Origin: Gemmatimonadota bacterium
GTDB taxonomy: Bacteria > Gemmatimonadota > Gemmatimonadetes > Longimicrobiales > Gaopeijiaceae
Assembly (NCBI GenBank): GCA_039591515.1
Contig: JBDHDM010000003.1
Span: forward strand, 1 to 43,385
Reading direction: 5' to 3'
DNA: 43,385 nucleotides
A program made the position numbers and the translations under genes. Positions 24,100 to 40,867 of this stretch are shown here, piece after piece. Below the pieces are notes generated by a model that saw only the letters and a program-made list of their open reading frames with translations, ran no database searches and was not told the origin of the DNA. Each line of letters begins with the position of its first letter. Positions within the stretch are counted from its first letter, which is position 1.

Positions 24100-24278
24100 C
24101 GACCAGGGCACTCGCGGGCCCTCTCGAGTCCGGTTCACGAGACGGGGAGGGGCAGCCTCACCCACACGGCCGCCAAGTTGTCAGCCCGCTACACCCTTTG
24201 CAAGGAAGCCGGTTACCTTCAGGCAGGCACAGATCCGGAAGTCGGTTCGTGTGCTCGAATAATTCCTCGAAAGAGTGG

Positions 24279-25544
24279 GTGACGTTGGAAGACAGACGCT
24301 TTGCCGACCTCGGAATCTCGTCCGAGCGGCTGGCTGCCATCGAGGCGTTGGGTTGGACGGACCCGACCCCGATCCAGACCCAGGGCATCCCGGCCGGTCT
24401 GACCGGAAAAGACGTGGTTGGAATCGCGCAGACCGGGACCGGAAAAACGGCAGCTTTCATGATTCCCGCGCTCGAACAGCTGAAGGTCGGCGGCGGGCTT
24501 CAGGTTCTGGTCCTGTGTCCGACCCGTGAGCTTGCGCAACAGGTCTCGGACGATACCGTTGCCCTGGCCAAGGGTACGAGCATCCGGTCGGAGGCGATCT
24601 TCGGTGGAGTGAGCTACGGACCCCAGGTGAAGGCCCTCGAGCAGGGGTTCGAGGTCATCGTGGCGACGCCAGGCCGGTTCATCGACCACATGCAGTCCAA
24701 GCGTGTGGACCTGAGCAAGGTCGAGTACCTCGTACTCGACGAGGCGGATCGCATGCTCGACATGGGCTTTCGCCCTCAGATCGAGGAGATCTTCCGAGGC
24801 ATGCCCAAGAAGCGCCAGACGATGCTCTTCAGCGCGACGATGCCCAACGGCGTGCACGATCTCGCGCTACGGATGACCCAGGACCCATTGTGGATCGAGG
24901 CGACCCCTTCTGGCACCACGGCGGAGGGCATCGACGAGAAGTTCTTCTCCGTGAAGCCGGAGAAGAAGCCCGATCTCCTTCTCGAGCTCATCCGGGGTCC
25001 CGGCTGGGATCAGGTGCTGATCTTCACGAGAACGAAGGCTGGTGCCGACGTACTCGAGGCTCGGTTGCAACGGGAGGGCATCAGCGTCGATGTCATGCAC
25101 TCCAACAGGCACATGAAACACAGGACCCGGGCCCTCGAGCGCTTCGCCCAGGGGAAGGTCAAGTTTCTGGTCGCCACCGACGTCGCACAGCGGGGTCTGG
25201 ACGTGGAGGGCATCAGTCACGTCGTGAACTACGACGTGCCCCTCGACCCTGAGGACTACGTGCATCGGATCGGGCGCACGGGCCGTGCCGGGGCAACGGG
25301 AACAGCGGTCACCTTCGTGACGGCCGCCGACCTCGGTGCGATGAAGAGTCTCGAGCACCGGCTCGGACGCTCCGTGGAGAAGGTTCACCTTCCCGAGTTC
25401 GACTACGCCGGGGTTCCGCAGAAGGAGTCTCGATCCACCACGACCCGGGGCCGCAAGTCGCGCTCACCACAAGGTCTCGGGTCCAAGTCCACGGACGACC
25501 TCTCGCCCGAGGAGTTGGCCGCCCTACTCAACCCGGGCTCGTGA
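24279..25544 (+). CDS. DEAD-box ATP-dependent RNA helicase (RhlE-like, basic C-terminal tail)
   Basis: All canonical motifs are present: FADLG...PTPIQ, AQTGTGKTAAF, PTRELA, TPGR, DEAD, SAT, ARGLD, HRIGRTGRAG. Start is uncertain (GTG 24279, TTG 24285 or GTG 24249). Confidence 0.92.
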   Translation: MTLEDRRFADLGISSERLAAIEALGWTDPTPIQTQGIPAGLTGKDVVGIAQTGTGKTAAFMIPALEQLKVGGGLQVLVLCPTRELAQQVSDDTVALAKGTSIRSEAIFGGVSYGPQVKALEQGFEVIVATPGRFIDHMQSKRVDLSKVEYLVLDEADRMLDMGFRPQIEEIFRGMPKKRQTMLFSATMPNGVHDLALRMTQDPLWIEATPSGTTAEGIDEKFFSVKPEKKPDLLLELIRGPGWDQVLIFTRTKAGADVLEARLQREGISVDVMHSNRHMKHRTRALERFAQGKVKFLVATDVAQRGLDVEGISHVVNYDVPLDPEDYVHRIGRTGRAGATGTAVTFVTAADLGAMKSLEHRLGRSVEKVHLPEFDYAGVPQKESRSTTTRGRKSRSPQGLGSKSTDDLSPEELAALLNPGS

Positions 25545-25550
25545 GGAGAG

Positions 25551-26330: not shown

Positions 26331-27335
26331 TCAGCGGAGTCCGAACGCGCGTCCGTCCAACTCCCAGCTCGGGTCGATCCGGATCCCGAGGTGTGCCAGG
26401 GCGGTGACGGCGACGTCGACGATGAACGTCTCCCGCTCCGCCGCGCCCTGCGCAGCGGCCGATCCTCCGGCGATGATGAACGTGGTCATCTCTTCCGGGG
26501 AGTCACCCCCGTGCCCACCATCGGCCCTCCGACCGTGGTCGGTGCTCACCAGGACCAGCCAGGCTTCCCTGTCGAAGTCCGGCCGGGCGCGAACGGCGTC
26601 CAAGAGTGTCCCCACGTGACTGTCCGCGCGCGTGATCGCATCGCGATACGCAGTGCCGATGGCGCCGGTCCCATGGCTGACCTCGTCCGGGTTGCCGAGG
26701 TAGACGAAGGTGGCGTCAGGGTCTCCCGTGCGCAGCTCTTCCACGGCCAGTGCGGTGCCTCGAGCGTCCGCTTCGGCCCAACCCAGCTCGTATCCATCGA
26801 GTATCTCGCGTCGATCGATCTCGGGGCCCAGAACCGTCGAGCCTCCCTCCAGTTCCATGAGCGGCAACCAGTCCGCGACCGCGAAGGTGGTCATGTCAGG
26901 GCGGGCCCGCTCCACGCGCGTCAGGAAGCCCGGGAACTCTTCGTACCGTCGTCCGCCGAACTCGTTGTCGGTCACTCCATGTTTGGCCGGCCATACACCC
27001 GTCAGCATGGAAGACCATGATGGTCCGCTCACGGAGGGGGTCGTCGTCCGGGTCGTCGTCGTGATCGTGCCCGCGGCGGCGAGCGCGTCGAGATGGGGCG
27101 TCGACACCTCGGCGAGCACGTCCGGCCGGACGCCGTCGATGCCGATGAGGAGGAGCTTGGGCCGGGTCTCCGCGACCGGGCCGCCTTCCGGCCCGGGCGC
27201 CCCGCAGGCGCTGAACAGGATCCAGAGCGCGGTCGCGCAAGGGAGCACCGTGGCGGGCGACGCCACTCGGCTCCGGCCGAGCCCGCGGAGTTGCGTCGGA
27301 CCAAGACTTTTGCTCCACTTCACGCACGGTATCAT
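26331..27335 (-). CDS. nucleotide pyrophosphatase/phosphodiesterase (alkaline-phosphatase superfamily) lipoprotein
   Basis: Lipobox ILFSAC. LLLIGIDGVRPD. TPSVSGPSWSSMLTG (nucleophile region). YLGNPDEVSHGTG. VSTDHGR...GGHGG. ATG 27335. GTG 27266 is an alternative start. Confidence 0.8.
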   Translation of the reverse strand: MIPCVKWSKSLGPTQLRGLGRSRVASPATVLPCATALWILFSACGAPGPEGGPVAETRPKLLLIGIDGVRPDVLAEVSTPHLDALAAAGTITTTTRTTTPSVSGPSWSSMLTGVWPAKHGVTDNEFGGRRYEEFPGFLTRVERARPDMTTFAVADWLPLMELEGGSTVLGPEIDRREILDGYELGWAEADARGTALAVEELRTGDPDATFVYLGNPDEVSHGTGAIGTAYRDAITRADSHVGTLLDAVRARPDFDREAWLVLVSTDHGRRADGGHGGDSPEEMTTFIIAGGSAAAQGAAERETFIVDVAVTALAHLGIRIDPSWELDGRAFGLR

Positions 27336-31988: not shown

Positions 31989-33557
31989 TCAGGTGACCGA
32001 GCGCGCCAGGGCGGGAAGGCGATCGAACCAGGGCCGAGCGCGCTCGAGCTGACCGGACAACCGAAACAGCAGGTCCTCACGACCGAGTCGTCCCACGACG
32101 TGCACGCCGACCGGGAGGCCGTCTTTATCCCACGAGAGGGGCAGCGACACCGCCGGATGGCCGGTCGCGTTGAACATGGGGGTGAAGGGGGTGAACGAGA
32201 GGACGTCCCTCGCCGCCTCGTCGATCAAGCCGGCAGCCCGGACGAGGCGCCCCGAGCCGAAAACGCCGAGCAGGCGCAGCTGACGCACCTCCGCGGCAGA
32301 CGGCCCGATCGTTCCGAGCGTGGGCGGGGGCTTGGAGAGCGTCGGGGTCAGGATGGCGTCGTAGCTCTCGAAGAACTCCCCAATCGAGCGCCCCATGATC
32401 TCGAGGCCGCGCAGGGCGGCAGCGAGCTCCGTCGAGGAGATCGCACCGGCCAGGAGCGCGAGCGCTCGGGTCGCCGGCTCGACCTCGCCTCGCCGCGGAC
32501 GCCGACCGACCATGCTCGTTGCTTCCGCCAAGTCAGCGCTCACCTCGCTCGCCAGGACGGTGAGGAAGTGCCTCGAAAAGAGAGGCCCGTCGACCGGGAG
32601 TTCAGCGGGGACGAGCTCGTGACCGAGCTCCTCGAGAAGGGCTACCGCGTCTTCGACGGCGTCCACACAGTGCGGGTGAACCTCGACATCGGCCGGTGGC
32701 CGGACGGTCCAGGCGATCCTCAGCGGGCCGACCCCGGCGTCGACCTCCTCGCGGTAGGGGCGAGCAGGAGCCGGGATCTCGAAGGGTGCACCCGGATCGG
32801 GCCCGTGGGTCGCGTCGAGCATCGCGGCGCTATCCCGGACGCTTCGCGTGATCACGTGCTCGACCGTGGCGCCCCTCCAATTCTGTCCGCGGCGAGGCCC
32901 GGTCGGCGTGCGTCCACGCGTCGGCTTGAGCCCGAACAGACCGCAGCACGATGCGGGGATTCGAATCGACCCTCCTCCGTCGCCGCCGCCCGCCATCGGG
33001 ACGATGCCTGCGGCGACTGCTGCAGCGGATCCGCCACTCGACCCCCCGGGCGTCCGCTCCGTGTCCCACGGATTACGGCAAGGGCCCCAGAGCTCCGGCT
33101 CGGTGGTGGGGAGAAGGCCCCACTCGGGCAGGTTGGTCTTCCCGAACACCGAGACACCGGTCTCTTTGACGCGTCGAGCGAGCTCGGAGTCCCAGTCCAC
33201 GACGACGTCGGCGAGAAAGCGACTTCCGGCCGAAGTCGGATGGCCCGCGTACATCGAAAGGAGGTCCTTGGCGAGGAAGGGAACGCCGGTGAAGGGGGGA
33301 GAGCGCACGTTTGCGTGCTCTGTCGTGATCGGCTCCTGGCGACCCTTTCCGAGCGACCCGTCCGACCTCGCCGCCGCCTCGCGAGCGTCGGCGACCATGA
33401 GGTGGACCACGGCGTTCAGGTGAGGGTTGAGGGCCTCGACGCGCGCGAGGGCGATGTCGAGCAGCTCGCCTGCCGTGACGTCGCCGGCGCGGGCGCGCGC
33501 CGCGAGCGCGGTTGCGTCGTGGGCCAGATACTCTTCGTGCGTCATGGCGAGTGGCAC
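31989..33557 (-). CDS. amidase-signature family amidase
   Basis: [46 protein letters not shown]. Confidence 0.88.
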
Positions 33558-33576: not shown

Positions 33577-35928
33577 TCACGCGCCCACCGCCCGCTCCAG
33601 GTCCGCGAGCATCTGTCGTGAGCTGGTGTGCTCGGGCATGAACTCGACCGCGCGCCGTGCGTGGGGCAGCGCCTCCTCGAATCGTTCGAGGCGGATGTAG
33701 GTGCGGCCGAGCTCGAAGTGCGCGAGCCCGAAGCCCGGGTCGGCCGCCACGGCCCGAGCGTACGACTCCGCGGCCTCGGCCAGGCGATTGGCCCGTTGCA
33801 GCGTGTTCCCGAGGTTGAAGTGGGCCAGGGACTCGTGCGGATTGAGGCGGAGCGCTTCGGCGAAGGCCTCCTGGGCGCCGCTCGGGTCTCCGTCGTTGCC
33901 CCGGGCGATTCCGAGATTCACCCAGGCGAGGGGTTGCCGGGTATCGATGGCCAGACTGGCCTCGATCGCGCGCACGGCCGCGGGCCAATCGCCGGCCTGG
34001 CTGTGGGTCTGTCCGAGGGAATGGAGGACACGTGCATCCTCGGGCCGGACCTCGAGCGCCTTTTCGTACGCGATCTGGCTCGCGGCGAGGTCACCCTCCT
34101 CGCGCGCCCGGTCACCGAGGAAGCCGAGGGCGAGGATCCAGCGGCCTCTCAAGGCCTCATCCGTCGCGGGGTCGGACGCGACGTCCTCGAGCGCGGCGGC
34201 GAGACCAACGCGCACGTCCGGATCGTCACCGCGCGACCAGTGCAGAGCCGCCAGAGCGAGCGAGCGGACGTCCAGGTCGGAGCTCGACGAGAGTGCGCCC
34301 AGCCGGTCCTCGGCTGCCCCCGGCAGCGCGGGCACGTTCGGCTGGAGATACGCGGTCACGAGTCGGCTCAAGCCCTGGAATTGGACGAGTGGGTCGAGCT
34401 CATCGGGATGCAGCAGGAGTGTGGCGGCCTCCTCGGCATTGCGGGCGCGGAACTCGGACGCGAGGCCGGAGACGGTGGGGCGGTGGGGTTTTCCCTCCCC
34501 CCACCATTCGCTCACCTGTCGTTGCAGCTCGAGTGCGGACTGGTCCGCGTGACACTGGACGCATGCCCCTCGAAGGCCGAGGTCCGCGTCGAAGCCCGGT
34601 CGGGGGATCGCGATCGTGTGGTCCGAGCGCCCGAAGGTGACCCCGTCGCCCACTTCCGGATGTTGTAGATAGGGCATGTGACACGAGACGCACTTGGCGC
34701 CTTCGGAGCCCGGTTCGTGGAAGGTGTGGGCGCGCGGATCGACTTCCTTGCTGCGATGGCAGGACGTGCACTGACCGTCGTCGAAGGGATCGGCGAGAGG
34801 AGTCTTGTCGACGTCCCAGTAGCCCTGCCCGTGCGGCTCGTGGCAGCTGACACAGTCCATCGGGCCCTGCAGATAACACGCGGAGGCGAGGTGCGTCGCC
34901 TGGTAGGCGAAGCTCCGTACCCGTCCGTCGATCGTGTACGGCTGATCGCCGAGGACCGGATACTTGAGGGCGTAGTACGCCTCGAGTGGCTCACCGGGAA
35001 GGTACCCCTCCTTCAGAACGTCCTTGAGGGCGTGGCACTGGAAGCAGACCTCGAGGGATTCGTCCTTGTCGAGGTAGGCGAGGCTCAAGATCCCGACCTC
35101 CCCGTCCTCACCGAACGGCCCCGCTGTCGCGCGCTCCACGTGTGCGCGGCCGGGCCCGTGGCACGACTCGCAGTTGACCTGCAGCGTCGTGTAGCTGGTG
35201 GTGTACCCCGAGCCCGGGTCGATCTCCGTGAGAATCTGGCTTCCGTGGCACTCCTGGCAGTTCGCGAACCGATTGATCGTCCCGATCGGGCGGAGCGGCG
35301 GCCAATCCCCACAATCGGCCATCGGCATCCGCGAGGTGATCGGCTCCCAGCCCCGGTCGGCTCGCGTGCCCGTGTTGCAGAACCACGTCTCTTCGGAGCC
35401 CGACCAGTCCCACGGCAGGAAGCGCTCCGTGCCGTCCACCTGACGGCCGATGTATCCCTGCGTGCCCCCTCCGATCATGTGCGCCCCGCCAATGACGCCG
35501 TCGACCCGGAAGACGGCCTCGTCGAAGCCTTGCTGACGCACGGCGAACTCGTAGGTGCCGGCCCGGATACGGGGGACGACCACTCCGTCGGAGAACCGGA
35601 TCGGTTGGCCGTCGAAGGGTGCGATGACGATGTCCGGCCCGGGCGTGCCGCCAGCTCTGCCGTGCGTGGACCCCGACCAGGCCTGGTACTCGGAGGCGTG
35701 ACAAGCGGCGCAGGCCTCCGCGCCGATGAAGTCGTCGGAGGACACGGCTCGAGCCGCCACGGGAGAGGGTGAAGGGAAGTCCTCCGATGCGCGATCCGCC
35801 GGGCCGCCTCCGGACTCACAGGCGCCGAGCGCCAGGACCGCGAGCGAGAGCGCCGTCACTCCGGGGCGGCCGGGCCGGGAGGCCGGACCCGCACGACGGA
35901 TCACCGTCCGTCGCCCTCTCGTGCCCAT
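33577..35928 (-). CDS. octahaem c-type cytochrome fused to C-terminal TPR repeats, lipoprotein
   Basis: Own start ATG 35928, with lipoprotein signal MGTRGRRTVIRRAGPASRPGRPGVTALSLAVLALGAC. Eight CxxCH motifs: CAACH, CQECH, CESCH, CFQCH, CVSCH, CTSCH, CVSCH, CVQCH. TPR-like repeats run from about aa 560 to the end (AYEKALEVRPEDA..., AFAEALRLNPHES..., SYARAVAADPGFG...). In the sequence as given it is read through from the upstream gene. Confidence 0.8.
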   Translation of the reverse strand: MGTRGRRTVIRRAGPASRPGRPGVTALSLAVLALGACESGGGPADRASEDFPSPSPVAARAVSSDDFIGAEACAACHASEYQAWSGSTHGRAGGTPGPDIVIAPFDGQPIRFSDGVVVPRIRAGTYEFAVRQQGFDEAVFRVDGVIGGAHMIGGGTQGYIGRQVDGTERFLPWDWSGSEETWFCNTGTRADRGWEPITSRMPMADCGDWPPLRPIGTINRFANCQECHGSQILTEIDPGSGYTTSYTTLQVNCESCHGPGRAHVERATAGPFGEDGEVGILSLAYLDKDESLEVCFQCHALKDVLKEGYLPGEPLEAYYALKYPVLGDQPYTIDGRVRSFAYQATHLASACYLQGPMDCVSCHEPHGQGYWDVDKTPLADPFDDGQCTSCHRSKEVDPRAHTFHEPGSEGAKCVSCHMPYLQHPEVGDGVTFGRSDHTIAIPRPGFDADLGLRGACVQCHADQSALELQRQVSEWWGEGKPHRPTVSGLASEFRARNAEEAATLLLHPDELDPLVQFQGLSRLVTAYLQPNVPALPGAAEDRLGALSSSSDLDVRSLALAALHWSRGDDPDVRVGLAAALEDVASDPATDEALRGRWILALGFLGDRAREEGDLAASQIAYEKALEVRPEDARVLHSLGQTHSQAGDWPAAVRAIEASLAIDTRQPLAWVNLGIARGNDGDPSGAQEAFAEALRLNPHESLAHFNLGNTLQRANRLAEAAESYARAVAADPGFGLAHFELGRTYIRLERFEEALPHARRAVEFMPEHTSSRQMLADLERAVGA

Positions 35929-36708
35929 ACCGGTTGTTCGCACTCGCACAGTGTGCGGATGTGCAGCACCAGCGCCCGGATCTGTTCCGGCTCGCCGGAT
36001 CTGTTCCGGCTCGAGCATGTCCCCGAACCCGGGCATGAGCGGGCTCTTGTCGAGGATGAAGCCGCCCGCGGCGATCCCGTCGTAGAGCGTGTCGTCCGGT
36101 CGCTTCGCCATGGCTTCGGCGTCGGCGTGTACGGTCGGAATCAACCCGAGGTTCGCGGCGTTCCACCCATCTCCACCACCGGCTGCGCCGTGACACGCGG
36201 CGCAGTGGCGGTCGTACAGGGCAGCTCCGTTCTGCTCAGCGCCCGGTGGCAGAGCGGCCGGCGGCTGCGGCAGCGCCGCGATAGTCGGGCTCGGGTTCGG
36301 GGGCAGGCTCATGATGTACGAGGCGAGTCGTCTGGCTTCGCGATCCGGCATGCGCTGACGTGGCATCATCGTGCCGGGCACGGTACTGGCGGGGTCCTGG
36401 ATCATGCGGAGCACGTGATCGATCTCCGCCCGTTCGCGGATGCCGTCGAGGATCGGGCCGATCATGCCGCCCACCCCCCCGATCTGGTGGCAGCCGCGGC
36501 AGGCGAGCCGATTCTCGAGAAGCCGCTCGACCCGCGCCGACTGAAACGCGGAGAGAGACCCGTCCGCCTCCTGCGCCGACGCTTCGTCCGCCCCACAAGC
36601 CAACGCGGCGGCGCACGCCAGGGTCAGCCGACCGGCGGCACGTGAGAGACGGGACGCTCCTGTGTGGAGTCGCCCGGCTGGGGGCTCGAGGATCGCAAAG
36701 GTAGCCAT
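35901..36708 (-). pseudogene. dihaem class-I cytochrome c, C-terminus frameshifted by a 19-bp tandem duplication (reads into the downstream gene)
   Basis: ATG 36708. Signal-like RLTLACAAALACGADEASAQ. Two CxxCH motifs (CRGCH, CAACH). The native TGA at 35903..35901 is in frame only if one repeat copy is removed: 808 nt minus 19 is 789 nt, or 263 codons. Confidence 0.6.
35976..36013. repeat. perfect 19-bp direct tandem duplication (2 x CCGGATCTGTTCCGGCTCG)
   Basis: Read directly from the sequence. Copy 1 is 35976..35994 and copy 2 is 35995..36013, with no mismatch. Confidence 0.97.
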
Positions 36709-36827
36709 GGCCCGAACACCCTCTCCCGCCCCGACCACGGTGTCAAGCAACCGGGCCGGCGCGCATGCGGTCGGCCTTCGAGGCGCCGCCCCCCGGCACG
36801 TATGCCTGGATGCGGAGGGCGCGGACC

Positions 36828-37601
36828 TCAGTCCTGCGCGGACGCGTGGAGCGCGAACATCGCCCCCTGTGGATCCGTGCAGTGGGCTACCATGTCCCCG
36901 CCGGGGATCTGCATGGGCTCGTTCCACACCGTGCCGCCGCCCGCCTTCACCGCTTCGACCGCCGCGTGGATGTCGGGTACGCGGATGTAGTAGAACCACA
37001 TGGCCGGGACGTCCTCGTTCGGTCGGTTCATCATGCCGCCGAGCTGCTGGCCTTCCCGACCGTACATGTGGTAGGTGCCCGCCTCGCCCATCTCCATCTC
37101 ACCGGTCTTCTCCCAGCCGAAGAGGGCCGAGTAGAAGGCCCAACCGGATTCCCAGTCGTCGGTGTACAGCTCGTGCCAGGAGACCTCTCCTACCTGCGGC
37201 GCACCGTCGTGCCCGGGCGCGAACTCCTCGGGCTCGTAGGCTGCGAAGACCACACCCTGGGGGTCGGCGAGGATCGCGATCGAGCCTACCGTCGGGACGT
37301 CGAACTGTGTCATGACCGTGCCGCCCAGCTCCACGGCCTTGGCCGCGGTCGCCCCGGCATCGGGCGTCGAGACGTATGCCAGCCAGTGCGGCGGGGCCCC
37401 CTGTGCTCGGGCCTCCTCCGGGAGCGCCATGACGCCCCCGATCGGCTGCTCACCGGCCGTCCACATGGTGTACGGCTCGCCTCCGCCCTCGTAGGGAGTG
37501 GTCCCCCACCCCGTCACGGGGCCGTAGAACGCCGGGGCGGCATCGGGGTCGGGGACCCTCAAGTCGTACCAGCAGAAGCGGCCCAGAGGAGTGTCGCTCA
37601 T
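36828..37601 (-). CDS. two-domain VOC (glyoxalase/bleomycin-resistance fold) family protein
   Basis: GRFCWYDL...TMW...WLAYVSTPD...DPQGVVFA is repeated as VSWHELYT...WFYYIRVPD...DPQGAMFAL. ATG 37601 has GGAG 9 nt upstream. Confidence 0.82.
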   Translation of the reverse strand: MSDTPLGRFCWYDLRVPDPDAAPAFYGPVTGWGTTPYEGGGEPYTMWTAGEQPIGGVMALPEEARAQGAPPHWLAYVSTPDAGATAAKAVELGGTVMTQFDVPTVGSIAILADPQGVVFAAYEPEEFAPGHDGAPQVGEVSWHELYTDDWESGWAFYSALFGWEKTGEMEMGEAGTYHMYGREGQQLGGMMNRPNEDVPAMWFYYIRVPDIHAAVEAVKAGGGTVWNEPMQIPGGDMVAHCTDPQGAMFALHASAQD

Positions 37602-37690: not shown

Positions 37691-40360
37691 CTACTCGGAC
37701 CGGAGCACCGAGATCGGATCCGTGGACGACGCCCTCGCAGCCGGAACGAAGGACGCGAGGGCCGATACCGCGACGAAGAGCGCGAGGGTGCCGCCCAGCG
37801 CCACGGGGTCCGTGGCACTGACTCCGAAGAGTGCGGCCGAGGCGATCCGACCCAGGCCCAAGGCTGCGATCATGCCGATCCCGAGCCCGATGCCCGTGAG
37901 CTTGAGGCCGCCCCCGACCACGCTGCGGCGGATCTCCGTCTTGGTCGCACCCAGCGCGATTCGGACGCCGATCTCCCGGTCGCGCTGGGCGACGGAAAAG
38001 GAGATCAACCCGTAGATCCCGAGGGCGGCGAGTAGCAGCGCCCCACCGCCGAAGATGCCGAGGAACACCGATCCGATGCTCCACTGCATCTGGTTTTCGG
38101 CCACCACGTCCTCGTAGGGACGGATGGTGAGGGGCAGGTCGGGCGCGATCGCTGCCAACGCCGAGCGCACACCGCCGACCATATCCGCCGGGTCCGAGGC
38201 CGTGCGCCCGACCACGAAGAAGCGACGCGAGGCGGCCTGCAACGACGGGCGGTAGTATTGTGGCCCCACGTTGCCCGGGTCGAGATCCGAGTGGTGCACC
38301 TCCTCGACCACTCCGATCACCACGCCCTGCGTGCGGCTGTCCGGATCCAACACCAGCGGCTGGCCCACGGCGTCTCCAGCCGGCCAGAGACGGTCCGCCA
38401 GCGGTCGGTTGATGATGACGACCGGCTGGGCCTCCGTCCCGTCCGTGATCGCGAAGTCCCGCCCGGCGACCACCTCGATACCCATCGTCTCGAAGTAACC
38501 CGGGTACACGTAGTTGGCGACCGCAAGCGGCCATTCTTCGGCGGGGGCGCCAGCGAGCGCCGTGGGGGCGACCTGGCCCGAGATGGTCTCGTGGTTGAGG
38601 GGCAGCCACCGGACGGCCGAGCTGGCGGAAATCCCGGCCACGCCCCGCACCGCGGCGACGGACTCCTCCAGGAAGGCCCTCCGCTCACCTGGAGTCGGGT
38701 ACGCGTCGGCACCCAGGATCACCTCCGTCGAGACGATTCTCTCGGGCTCGAAGCCGAGGTCCAGACGCTGGACCGAGGCGAAGCTCCGGAGCATGAGCCC
38801 GGCGCCGCTGATCAGCACGACCGCGAGCGCGACCTGGGAGATCACAAGGACCTGGCGGCCCCCGGAAGTGGCCAGCCCGCCCGAGCTCTTCGACCCTTCC
38901 TTCAGCCCCAGGGTCAGGTCGACGCGAGACGCCGAGAGGGCAGGAGCGAGTCCGAACGCCACCGGTGTGGCAAGCGTCACCAGCAGGGAAAACGCGAGGA
39001 CCGTCCGGTCGATGGAGATCGCTCCGATCTTGAAGAGATCCTCGGGAATGACGGGATTGAGCAGTCCGGTGATCCAATACGCCATCGCTACGCCCAGAAC
39101 ACCGCCGGCCGCCGCGAGCACGAGGCTCTCGGTGAGGAGCTGGCGGACGATGCGTCCCCGACGCGCGCCCATTGCGGCCCGCACCGAGACCTCACGAAGT
39201 CGGGAGCTTCCGCGCGCGAGGGTGAGACTCGCGACGTTCGCGCAGGCGATCAGAAGGACGAAAGCGACGGCTCCGAGGAGCACGTAGAAGAGCGCGTTCA
39301 TCATGTCCCACGCGAAGTTGAGCGCCTCTCGCACGGGCTTCACGGACACGCCCGACATCCGCCCGTCTTGCTCGGGATACTGCGCGGCGAGCTCCGCCTG
39401 GATCCCTTCGAGCTCCGACCGGACGCGGTCGACCGTCCAGCCGTCGTTGAGGCGTCCGACGAGCTGATAGGGAAGCCTGCCCCGGTCCGCCGAGCGGTCG
39501 TCACGGATGGGGAGCCAGAGCTTCACGCCGCCGAAGGGGAAGTTGAACTCGGGGGGCATCACGCCGATGACGGTGTGCTGAATCCCGTCGAGGGTGATCG
39601 CTCGGCCGACGATCGCGGGGTCCGCGGCGTAGCGGCGCTCCCAGAGTCCCTGGGCGAGCACGACGACCGGCTCTCCGCCCGGCCCTCCCTCGTCCAAACG
39701 GAACGTCCTTCCGATCGAGGCCTGCGCGTCGAGGACTTCGAACATGTTGGACGTGAGCCGAGAGTACTGAACCTGCTCCGGTCCCTCGGCGTCCGTGACG
39801 TTGGCGGAGCCGTACGTGTACGCCGCGAGGTCCTGGAACGCTCGCGAGCGCTCCTTCCAATCGGCGTACTGGGGGTAGGAGAAGCGGTCCATGTCCCATC
39901 CGGTGGTGGGATTGACCTGGTTCACCTGCACGAGCTCGCCCGCGTCGCCGAACGGAAGCGGGCGGAACAGGTACGGGTTCATCACGCTGAAAATCGTGGT
40001 GTTGGCCGCGATCCCGAACGCGAGGGTCAGAACGACCAAGCCCGCGTATCCGGGCGCCTTGCGAATGGACCGTAGCGCATAGCGCACGTCCTGGCGGATC
40101 TCGTCGAGTGACATCATCTCCCTCCTCCTCTCGTCCCGTCCCCGACGTGCCTGCATCTCGCTGCAGTACGTCCGGGTCTCGTCCATGTCTCCGAAGCGTC
40201 GAAGCGCCTCCTGACGGGCCTCTGCCCGCTCCCAGCCCGCCTCCGTCAGCTCTTCGGTAGCGAGCTCCATGTGATGCCGGAGCTCGTCCTCGACGGCACC
40301 GTGCGCATCCGCGTCCGACCACCGCTCGAGCCGGAAGGCCCGCTTGAACCGCTCGCTCAT
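37691..40360 (-). CDS. ADOP-family duplicated FtsX/MacB-type permease with N-terminal 'permease prefix' helix region
   Basis: N-terminus MSERFKRAFRLERWSDADAHGAVEDELRHHMELATEE...IRQDVRYALRSIRKAPGYAGLVVLTLAFGIAANT. There are two MacB-like periplasmic domains, each followed by an FtsX TM bundle (...REIGVRIALGATKTEI...). GGAGG lies upstream of the ATG. No ATPase gene is adjacent. Confidence 0.9.
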   Translation of the reverse strand: MSERFKRAFRLERWSDADAHGAVEDELRHHMELATEELTEAGWERAEARQEALRRFGDMDETRTYCSEMQARRGRDERRREMMSLDEIRQDVRYALRSIRKAPGYAGLVVLTLAFGIAANTTIFSVMNPYLFRPLPFGDAGELVQVNQVNPTTGWDMDRFSYPQYADWKERSRAFQDLAAYTYGSANVTDAEGPEQVQYSRLTSNMFEVLDAQASIGRTFRLDEGGPGGEPVVVLAQGLWERRYAADPAIVGRAITLDGIQHTVIGVMPPEFNFPFGGVKLWLPIRDDRSADRGRLPYQLVGRLNDGWTVDRVRSELEGIQAELAAQYPEQDGRMSGVSVKPVREALNFAWDMMNALFYVLLGAVAFVLLIACANVASLTLARGSSRLREVSVRAAMGARRGRIVRQLLTESLVLAAAGGVLGVAMAYWITGLLNPVIPEDLFKIGAISIDRTVLAFSLLVTLATPVAFGLAPALSASRVDLTLGLKEGSKSSGGLATSGGRQVLVISQVALAVVLISGAGLMLRSFASVQRLDLGFEPERIVSTEVILGADAYPTPGERRAFLEESVAAVRGVAGISASSAVRWLPLNHETISGQVAPTALAGAPAEEWPLAVANYVYPGYFETMGIEVVAGRDFAITDGTEAQPVVIINRPLADRLWPAGDAVGQPLVLDPDSRTQGVVIGVVEEVHHSDLDPGNVGPQYYRPSLQAASRRFFVVGRTASDPADMVGGVRSALAAIAPDLPLTIRPYEDVVAENQMQWSIGSVFLGIFGGGALLLAALGIYGLISFSVAQRDREIGVRIALGATKTEIRRSVVGGGLKLTGIGLGIGMIAALGLGRIASAALFGVSATDPVALGGTLALFVAVSALASFVPAARASSTDPISVLRSE

Positions 40361-40784: not shown

Positions 40785-40867
40785 GGTTCACTCCTTCCGT
40801 CGTTGCGACGGGGCCCGGGCGAGGCCAAACGCGCTGCGGCCGGCCATGCGCGCTTGCCCTCACCAAG

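Follow-up and report, generated by a model that had tools for sequence, protein, structure and literature searches.

A perfect 19-bp tandem duplication occupies positions 35976..36013 of the window, i.e., the whole stretch of 43,385 nucleotides analysed here from a Gemmatimonadota bacterium (contig JBDHDM010000003.1), where a gene for a dihaem cytochrome c and a downstream gene for a putative octahaem/TPR lipoprotein are read, on the minus strand, as one open reading frame (ORF). The reading we hold to be the most credible, with somewhat better than even confidence, is that of a real, recent and lineage-specific duplication at strain level, which by a net +1 frameshift damages a conserved dihaem gene and of which the fusion is a by-product. 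As the by-product of a damaging frameshift, the fusion would be accidental and not an evolved 10-haem protein.

The 19-bp repeat and the reading frames around it

On the minus, coding strand, two head-to-tail copies of CGAGCCGGAACAGATCCGG (plus-strand unit CCGGATCTGTTCCGGCTCG) fill positions 35976..36013, namely a promoter-distal copy at 35976..35994 and a promoter-proximal copy, identical to the former, at 35995..36013; the two match at 100%, amount to exactly 2.0 copies and have no second copy as counterpart in the related loci L056-L058 and L001-L004. The perfect duplication claimed by the original prediction is exact in the sequence and was recovered by Tandem Repeats Finder (period 19, 2.0 copies, 100% matches), where its score of 76 is the highest in the window. 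In an exhaustive scan, no second perfect duplication in tandem with a unit of at least 10 bp came up anywhere in the window, and about 2e-6 perfect duplications of at least 19 bp are expected by chance in 43 kb with a 68% G+C composition. Mismatches bound the repeat at both ends (35975 C vs 35994 G, and 36014 A vs 35995 C): its period does not reach even one base further in either direction, and flanking microhomology is nil. In bacterial genes, small tandem duplications of about 5-30 bp are a known source of frameshifts, which leave behind a pseudogene or fuse overlapping genes by read-through. The duplication in the window resembles them in being a perfect head-to-tail copy of a length that is not a multiple of three, in being lineage-specific, and in that a conserved C-terminus is lost and the frame reads into an overlapping downstream gene; it differs from the usual case by its zero flanking microhomology, the signature of slippage being missing. 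A hairpin-driven origin was considered and dropped, since shuffled sequences fold about as stably as the unit with its 5-bp stem CCGGA/TCCGG (z = -0.4).

As written, the fused ORF extends from ATG 36708 over 33577..36708 on the minus strand, with its stop at 33577..33579, and encodes 1043 aa with 2 + 8 CxxCH motifs (1140 aa if counted from the first GTG, at 36999). This chimeric protein is recorded in both NCBI and JGI/IMG as a single protein, from one contig of 43385 bp, so that the window corresponds to a complete contig. Independent translation reproduced the ORF as originally described, including the internalised putative lipobox: the downstream N-terminus MIRRAGPASRPGRPGVTALSLAVLALGAC, in which a lipoprotein signal and lipobox (...LAVLALGAC) were read by eye from the sequence, is internal to the fused ORF, and the fused polypeptide would hold the downstream signal peptide and lipobox within its chain. 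When one copy of the unit is deleted, the frame instead gives a 262-aa dihaem cytochrome c with the C-terminus ...EQIRALVLHIRTLCECEQPVWAREGDGR (over a longer stretch, ...GFGDMLEPEQIRALVLHIRTLCECEQPVWAREGDGR) followed by a TGA stop at 35903..35901; the translations given in the original prediction and its arithmetic (808 - 19 = 789 nt = 263 codons) are correct. The dihaem gene can then be divided into an intact part at 36014..36708 (minus strand), comprising the signal peptide and two CxxCH domains up to ...GFGDML and borne out by matches to PF13442/PF00034 and by 178 homologues, and an out-of-frame relic of the 3' end at 35901..35975 (minus strand), encoding ALVLHIRTLCECEQPVWAREGDGR and the TGA at 35903..35901, which was recognised from its translation, the homologues and the G+C content at third codon positions (GC3). 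Past the repeat, the ancestral frame has a GC3 of 0.68 and the fused one of 0.50, a comparison of only about 25 codons. Programmed ribosomal frameshifting as a means of restoring the dihaem C-terminus was rejected: no slippery heptamer was seen by eye in or beside the repeat, and the product would have 6-7 additional residues inserted into the helix described below.

That the loss of one copy restores the typical end of a class-I cytochrome c, as originally proposed, agrees with Pfam, with a structural homologue and with the protein family. The repaired 262-aa protein scores 65.6 bits against PF13442 (cut-off 27) and 64.1 bits against PF00034 (cut-off 21.3), each in two stretches, with the best PF00034 stretch spanning profile positions 2-89 of 90, whereas in the fused ORF the best such stretch covers only positions 2-49 of 90 at 43 bits. 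With both CxxCH motifs (residues 70 and 169) lying in domains above the gathering score, the repaired product qualifies as a dihaem class-I cytochrome c. The C-terminal helix that completes the second domain is missing in the sequence as written and present both in the one-copy reading and in the related protein P0126. The second domain could further be aligned with the solved cytochrome c-552 Ks_3358 of Kuenenia stuttgartiensis (PDB 5mxy) over residues 4-81 of 85; since this alignment reaches through LEPEQIRALVLHIR, its C-terminal helix, the duplication cuts within that helix. With 5mxy, the repaired second domain shares the CxxCH motif, the downstream Met (LMPGF), the C-terminal helix and an alignment from end to end. 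Compared with class-I cytochromes of this type, the Gemmatimonadota dihaem family has an additional conserved C-terminal tail, LCxCxQPxW, while the window as written has lost both helix and tail.

The dihaem homologues, 178 in number, belong essentially all to Gemmatimonadota/Longimicrobiales. The 120 that were listed are all stand-alone proteins of 176-453 aa (median 240): none of these 120 exceeds 453 aa or approaches the ~1000 aa expected of a fusion. The C-terminal helix and the LCxC..P.W tail are kept in every one of them (120/120), the proteins ending 3-17 residues later, and a strict pattern fits 112 of the 120, with minor variants in the other eight. In the window, the tail LCxCxQPxW lies in the ancestral frame within 35901..35960, right after the class-I helix, as it does in essentially all of P0001-P0120. 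Its two invariant cysteines stand outside any CxxCH, which hints at a disulfide bond, at a metal site or at contact with a partner.

The locus in related genomes

Around the two cytochrome genes, the order PadR, MacB/FtsX, glyoxalase-fold, dihaem, octahaem/TPR and amidase is conserved, always with two separate genes, and the part from glyoxalase-fold to amidase is so in L001-L004 and L056-L058; in the window, the flanking neighbours are a glyoxalase-fold protein of 257 aa upstream (36828..37601, minus strand) and an amidase of 518 aa downstream (31989..33545, minus strand). L056-L058 are contigs of metagenome-assembled genomes (MAGs) in NCBI (GCA_039585655.1, GCA_039585255.1 and GCA_039585035.1) and were reached only via the 90% cluster of the fused protein, which contains P0126 and P0127. 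With 96-98% DNA identity to the window, they are regarded as conspecific with it. P0126 (262 aa), found on L056-L058, ends in exactly the residues of the repaired reading; L058 has, in addition, a gene for the separate octahaem/TPR protein P0127 (775 aa).

Alignment of the junction DNA revealed a single copy of the unit in 7/7 loci, three conspecific and four more distant, at 75% to 98% nucleotide identity, and these one-copy loci all have two genes; it is the duplication that creates the fusion. Among the conspecific assemblies, the two-copy allele is found in one of four; two further conspecific contigs, L059 and L060, end short of the duplication site. Both copies in the window carry GAA at a place where every aligned relative has GAG. 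It follows that the duplicate was made from the window's own sequence, in a young, lineage-specific event. As for the "very recent slipped-strand mutation" originally envisaged, its recency is upheld by this window-specific GAA in both copies, but its slipped-strand nature is not, given the lack of border microhomology and a hairpin no better than shuffled sequence.

The protein collections tell the same about the architecture. None of the 120 listed octahaem/TPR homologues has a PF13442/PF00034 domain or a blastp match to the dihaem protein, and no fused dihaem-octahaem homologue occurs among the 240 listed relatives (120 dihaem, 120 octahaem/TPR). The octahaem/TPR gene adjoins the dihaem gene in every locus examined. 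The alignment with orthologues advised in the original prediction thus gives two separate genes as the norm in L001-L004, L056-L058 and the listed homologues, and an orthologue with the same fusion in the absence of a repeat was looked for in vain. On these comparisons, the single-copy, two-gene state is the ancestral one. The opposite polarity, in which the fusion would come first and a deletion would have split it into two genes, has nothing in its favour besides the open frame; it is contradicted by the 7/7 aligned loci with one copy and two genes, by the same arrangement in all listed homologues and by a codon bias of the ancestral frame that persists past the repeat. Refuted by the locus alignment and the listed homologues, it retains practically no probability.

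The octahaem/TPR gene and how the fusion would arise

The downstream gene, an octahaem c-type cytochrome/TPR gene according to Pfam, P0127 and the homologues, putatively for a lipoprotein, most likely starts at GTG 35904 and then spans 33577..35904 on the minus strand (775 aa), the other possible starts being ATG 35928 (783 aa) and GTG 35859 (760 aa, the length of P0122). The NCBI start of the gene in L058 is the GTG equivalent to 35904 (775 aa, MIRRAGPA...), while the JGI version of the downstream protein has 760 aa. Nine nucleotides upstream of GTG 35904 lies GAGGG (35914..35918, minus strand), a motif resembling a Shine-Dalgarno sequence and presumed to act as one, and no comparable motif precedes ATG 35928. 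A start at GTG 35904, which would give the 4-nt GTGA stop/start overlap typical of translational coupling, is therefore more likely than one at ATG 35928 with a 28-nt overlap. The stop at 35903..35901 was correctly placed by the original prediction; its position 28 nt inside the next gene depends on ATG 35928, and gives way to the GTGA overlap if GTG 35904 is the likelier start.

The downstream protein contains eight CxxCH motifs and a strong TPR array across its last ~200 residues. Its haem part has weak to moderate matches to Cytochrome_C7, MtrC/MtrF domain II/IV and the DmsE family, and no curated family was matched by it at the family's own cut-off. Set beside multihaem cytochromes (Cytochrome_C7, MtrC/MtrF II/IV, DmsE-type decahaem, NrfA-like) fused to TPR domains, it is alike in its eight CxxCH, weak matches and C-terminal TPR, and differs in that the haem part stays under every curated cut-off. 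In the source databases, octahaem/TPR proteins are labelled only as "tetratricopeptide repeat protein" or "TadD" ("Flp pilus assembly protein TadD"), and the 8-haem domain of the family is effectively unannotated. The search returned 2031 hits at E<=1e-20, a total that may include TPR-only matches. The best 120 homologues (P0143-P0261 among the relatives listed) are full-length Gemmatimonadota proteins of 671-798 aa with 58-96% identity, of which 116 have eight CxxCH and four have seven.

With these elements, a sequence of steps can be proposed. The ancestral locus, which conspecific genomes still have, consists of two genes, presumably coupled in translation, for a 262-aa dihaem protein and a ~775-aa octahaem/TPR lipoprotein, the GTG of the latter most likely overlapping the TGA of the former as GTGA. 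The 19-bp duplication, net +1, would then have struck the last 10% of the dihaem gene, after ...EPEQIR and inside the helix that closes the second domain, so that helix and LCxCxQPxW tail would be swapped for 22 unrelated residues (RAGTDPGAGAAHPHTVRVRTTG). With a +1 shift upstream, ribosomes would enter the frame used by the overlapping downstream gene; since the ~70 GC-rich bases in between are free of stops, the ORF continues into the octahaem gene; the 4-nt overlap with GTG 35904 would account for the fusion once the net +1 shift has occurred. If real, the loss of the C-terminal helix and of the invariant CxC tail probably makes the second haem domain of the dihaem protein unstable; translation of the octahaem lipoprotein may still proceed from the gene's own GTG start. 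Tandem duplications can revert by losing one copy, and the two-copy allele can do so likewise through deletion of one of its two units.

Mutation, assembly error or functional state

Within the two-copy allele, the main competitor of a genuine mutation is an artefact of assembly or consensus, in which the source DNA would be single-copy and the second copy would stem from the joining or gap-closing of a 19-base overlap or from mis-resolved strain variation. It has some weight, though it is the less probable explanation. The two-copy allele is known from one contig only: the junction peptide EQIRRAGTDPGAGAAHPH has no other carrier in a protein collection of 5.8 billion sequences; an exact look-up of the fused protein, aimed at the same population elsewhere, recorded no encoding contig; and the repaired protein found nothing above 74% protein identity in species-representative genomes and JGI metagenome contigs. 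No paper on these MAG accessions and IMG ids was found in the literature. Exactly 2.0 copies with zero microhomology is also what a bad join of a 19-base overlap would leave, the lesion ruins a strictly conserved protein end, and the conspecific MAG contigs L056, L057, L059 and L060 break repeatedly within the cassette. All four have their ends within the dihaem or octahaem genes, a pattern suggestive of strain-level heterogeneity fragmenting the assemblies.

Against an artefact, de Bruijn-graph assemblers normally build contigs only from k-mers present in reads, so that, if such an assembler was used, a new junction is not easily invented. Over ~13 kb, moreover, no other frame-breaking difference separates the window from the conspecific contigs: all other indels are intergenic, i.e., of 1-2 nt or, in L057, of 19 nt, or else in frame, i.e., of 108 nt in L056, which indicates that the contig is not generally error-ridden. 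The whole-window gene map, as judged from ORFs and GC3 alone, is likewise dense with no obviously split genes. The original prediction had left three options, namely a recent mutation, a heterogeneous site and an artefact; the two-copy allele in one of four conspecific assemblies fits the first two, and the third keeps the lesser, if real, chance given above.

Several of these differences, and a few features elsewhere in the window, deserve a separate record. The 19 nt missing from L057 (ATGGCCGGCCGCAGCGCGT; 40829..40847) are present in the window and L056. They sit between genes, upstream of PadR, with a GCGCG direct repeat on each side, as is classical for a deletion at microhomology; that deletion and duplication are of equal length (19) is most likely a coincidence. 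The 108 nt absent from L056 correspond to 36 in-frame codons (38951..39058) of the MacB/FtsX-type permease gene, as compared with the window and L057. Single-base insertions occur in the window at 36785 and 36793 relative to all three conspecific contigs, between the glyoxalase-fold and dihaem genes and 77-85 nt upstream of ATG 36708. Further away, ARAGORN reported an 88-nt tRNA-Ala(cgc) at 27201..27288 (minus strand), within the high-GC3 ORF 26331..27335 on the same strand; it is probably a false positive, since Rfam finds no tRNA there at gathering score, and the Rfam scan of the whole window returned no RNA family. Finally, about 1.4 kb (24166..25550) is devoid of any ORF passing the GC3 >= 0.78 filter of the quick gene map.

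The two-copy allele could also be thought of as tolerated or functional, either as a nascent working 10-haem fusion or as a reversible on/off switch operated by adding and removing one 19-bp copy. In favour of this, the fused frame is open and annotated as one protein, the site differs among conspecific assemblies, and one-copy deletions of tandem duplications are a general phenomenon. The fusion nevertheless has no homologue among the 240 listed relatives, removes the invariant helix and CxC tail, and is bridged by a linker of frameshift-derived sequence and an internalised signal peptide. As for a switch, known contingency loci consist of many copies of 1-7 bp units, which the two 19-bp copies do not resemble; only one vs two copies of the unit are on record, the three conspecific and four distant loci all having one, and no further allele with at least two copies was seen in these seven aligned loci. 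A functional state of this kind is very unlikely. Nor, at a slightly lower estimate, do we expect that a real two-copy allele is maintained in a fraction of the population, be it as a reversible switch or as a nascent fusion of overlapping, coupled genes; if it were, a dihaem carrier would be tethered to its octahaem/TPR partner, or turned off, and a gene fusion would have been caught at its first step. With no homologue in other lineages combining both domain types, the "10-haem fusion" is, as far as these comparisons go, no protein family.

The event in the window is hence best taken as an ordinary recent mutation, or else an assembly error, of a known class of lesion, the small tandem-duplication frameshift, and the 19-bp duplication opens no new biological question. 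It is a textbook case of a +1 frameshift ahead of a GTGA-overlapped gene pair resulting in an instant fusion ORF. What it means is mainly a matter of annotation hygiene: the public 1043-aa "10-haem" protein is a chimera that a frameshift makes out of two conserved genes, and the proper reading of the locus is a disrupted dihaem cytochrome c followed by an intact gene for the putative octahaem/TPR lipoprotein. Should the lesion be real, the strain has probably lost or crippled a small cytochrome coupled to a multihaem/TPR protein widespread in Gemmatimonadota.
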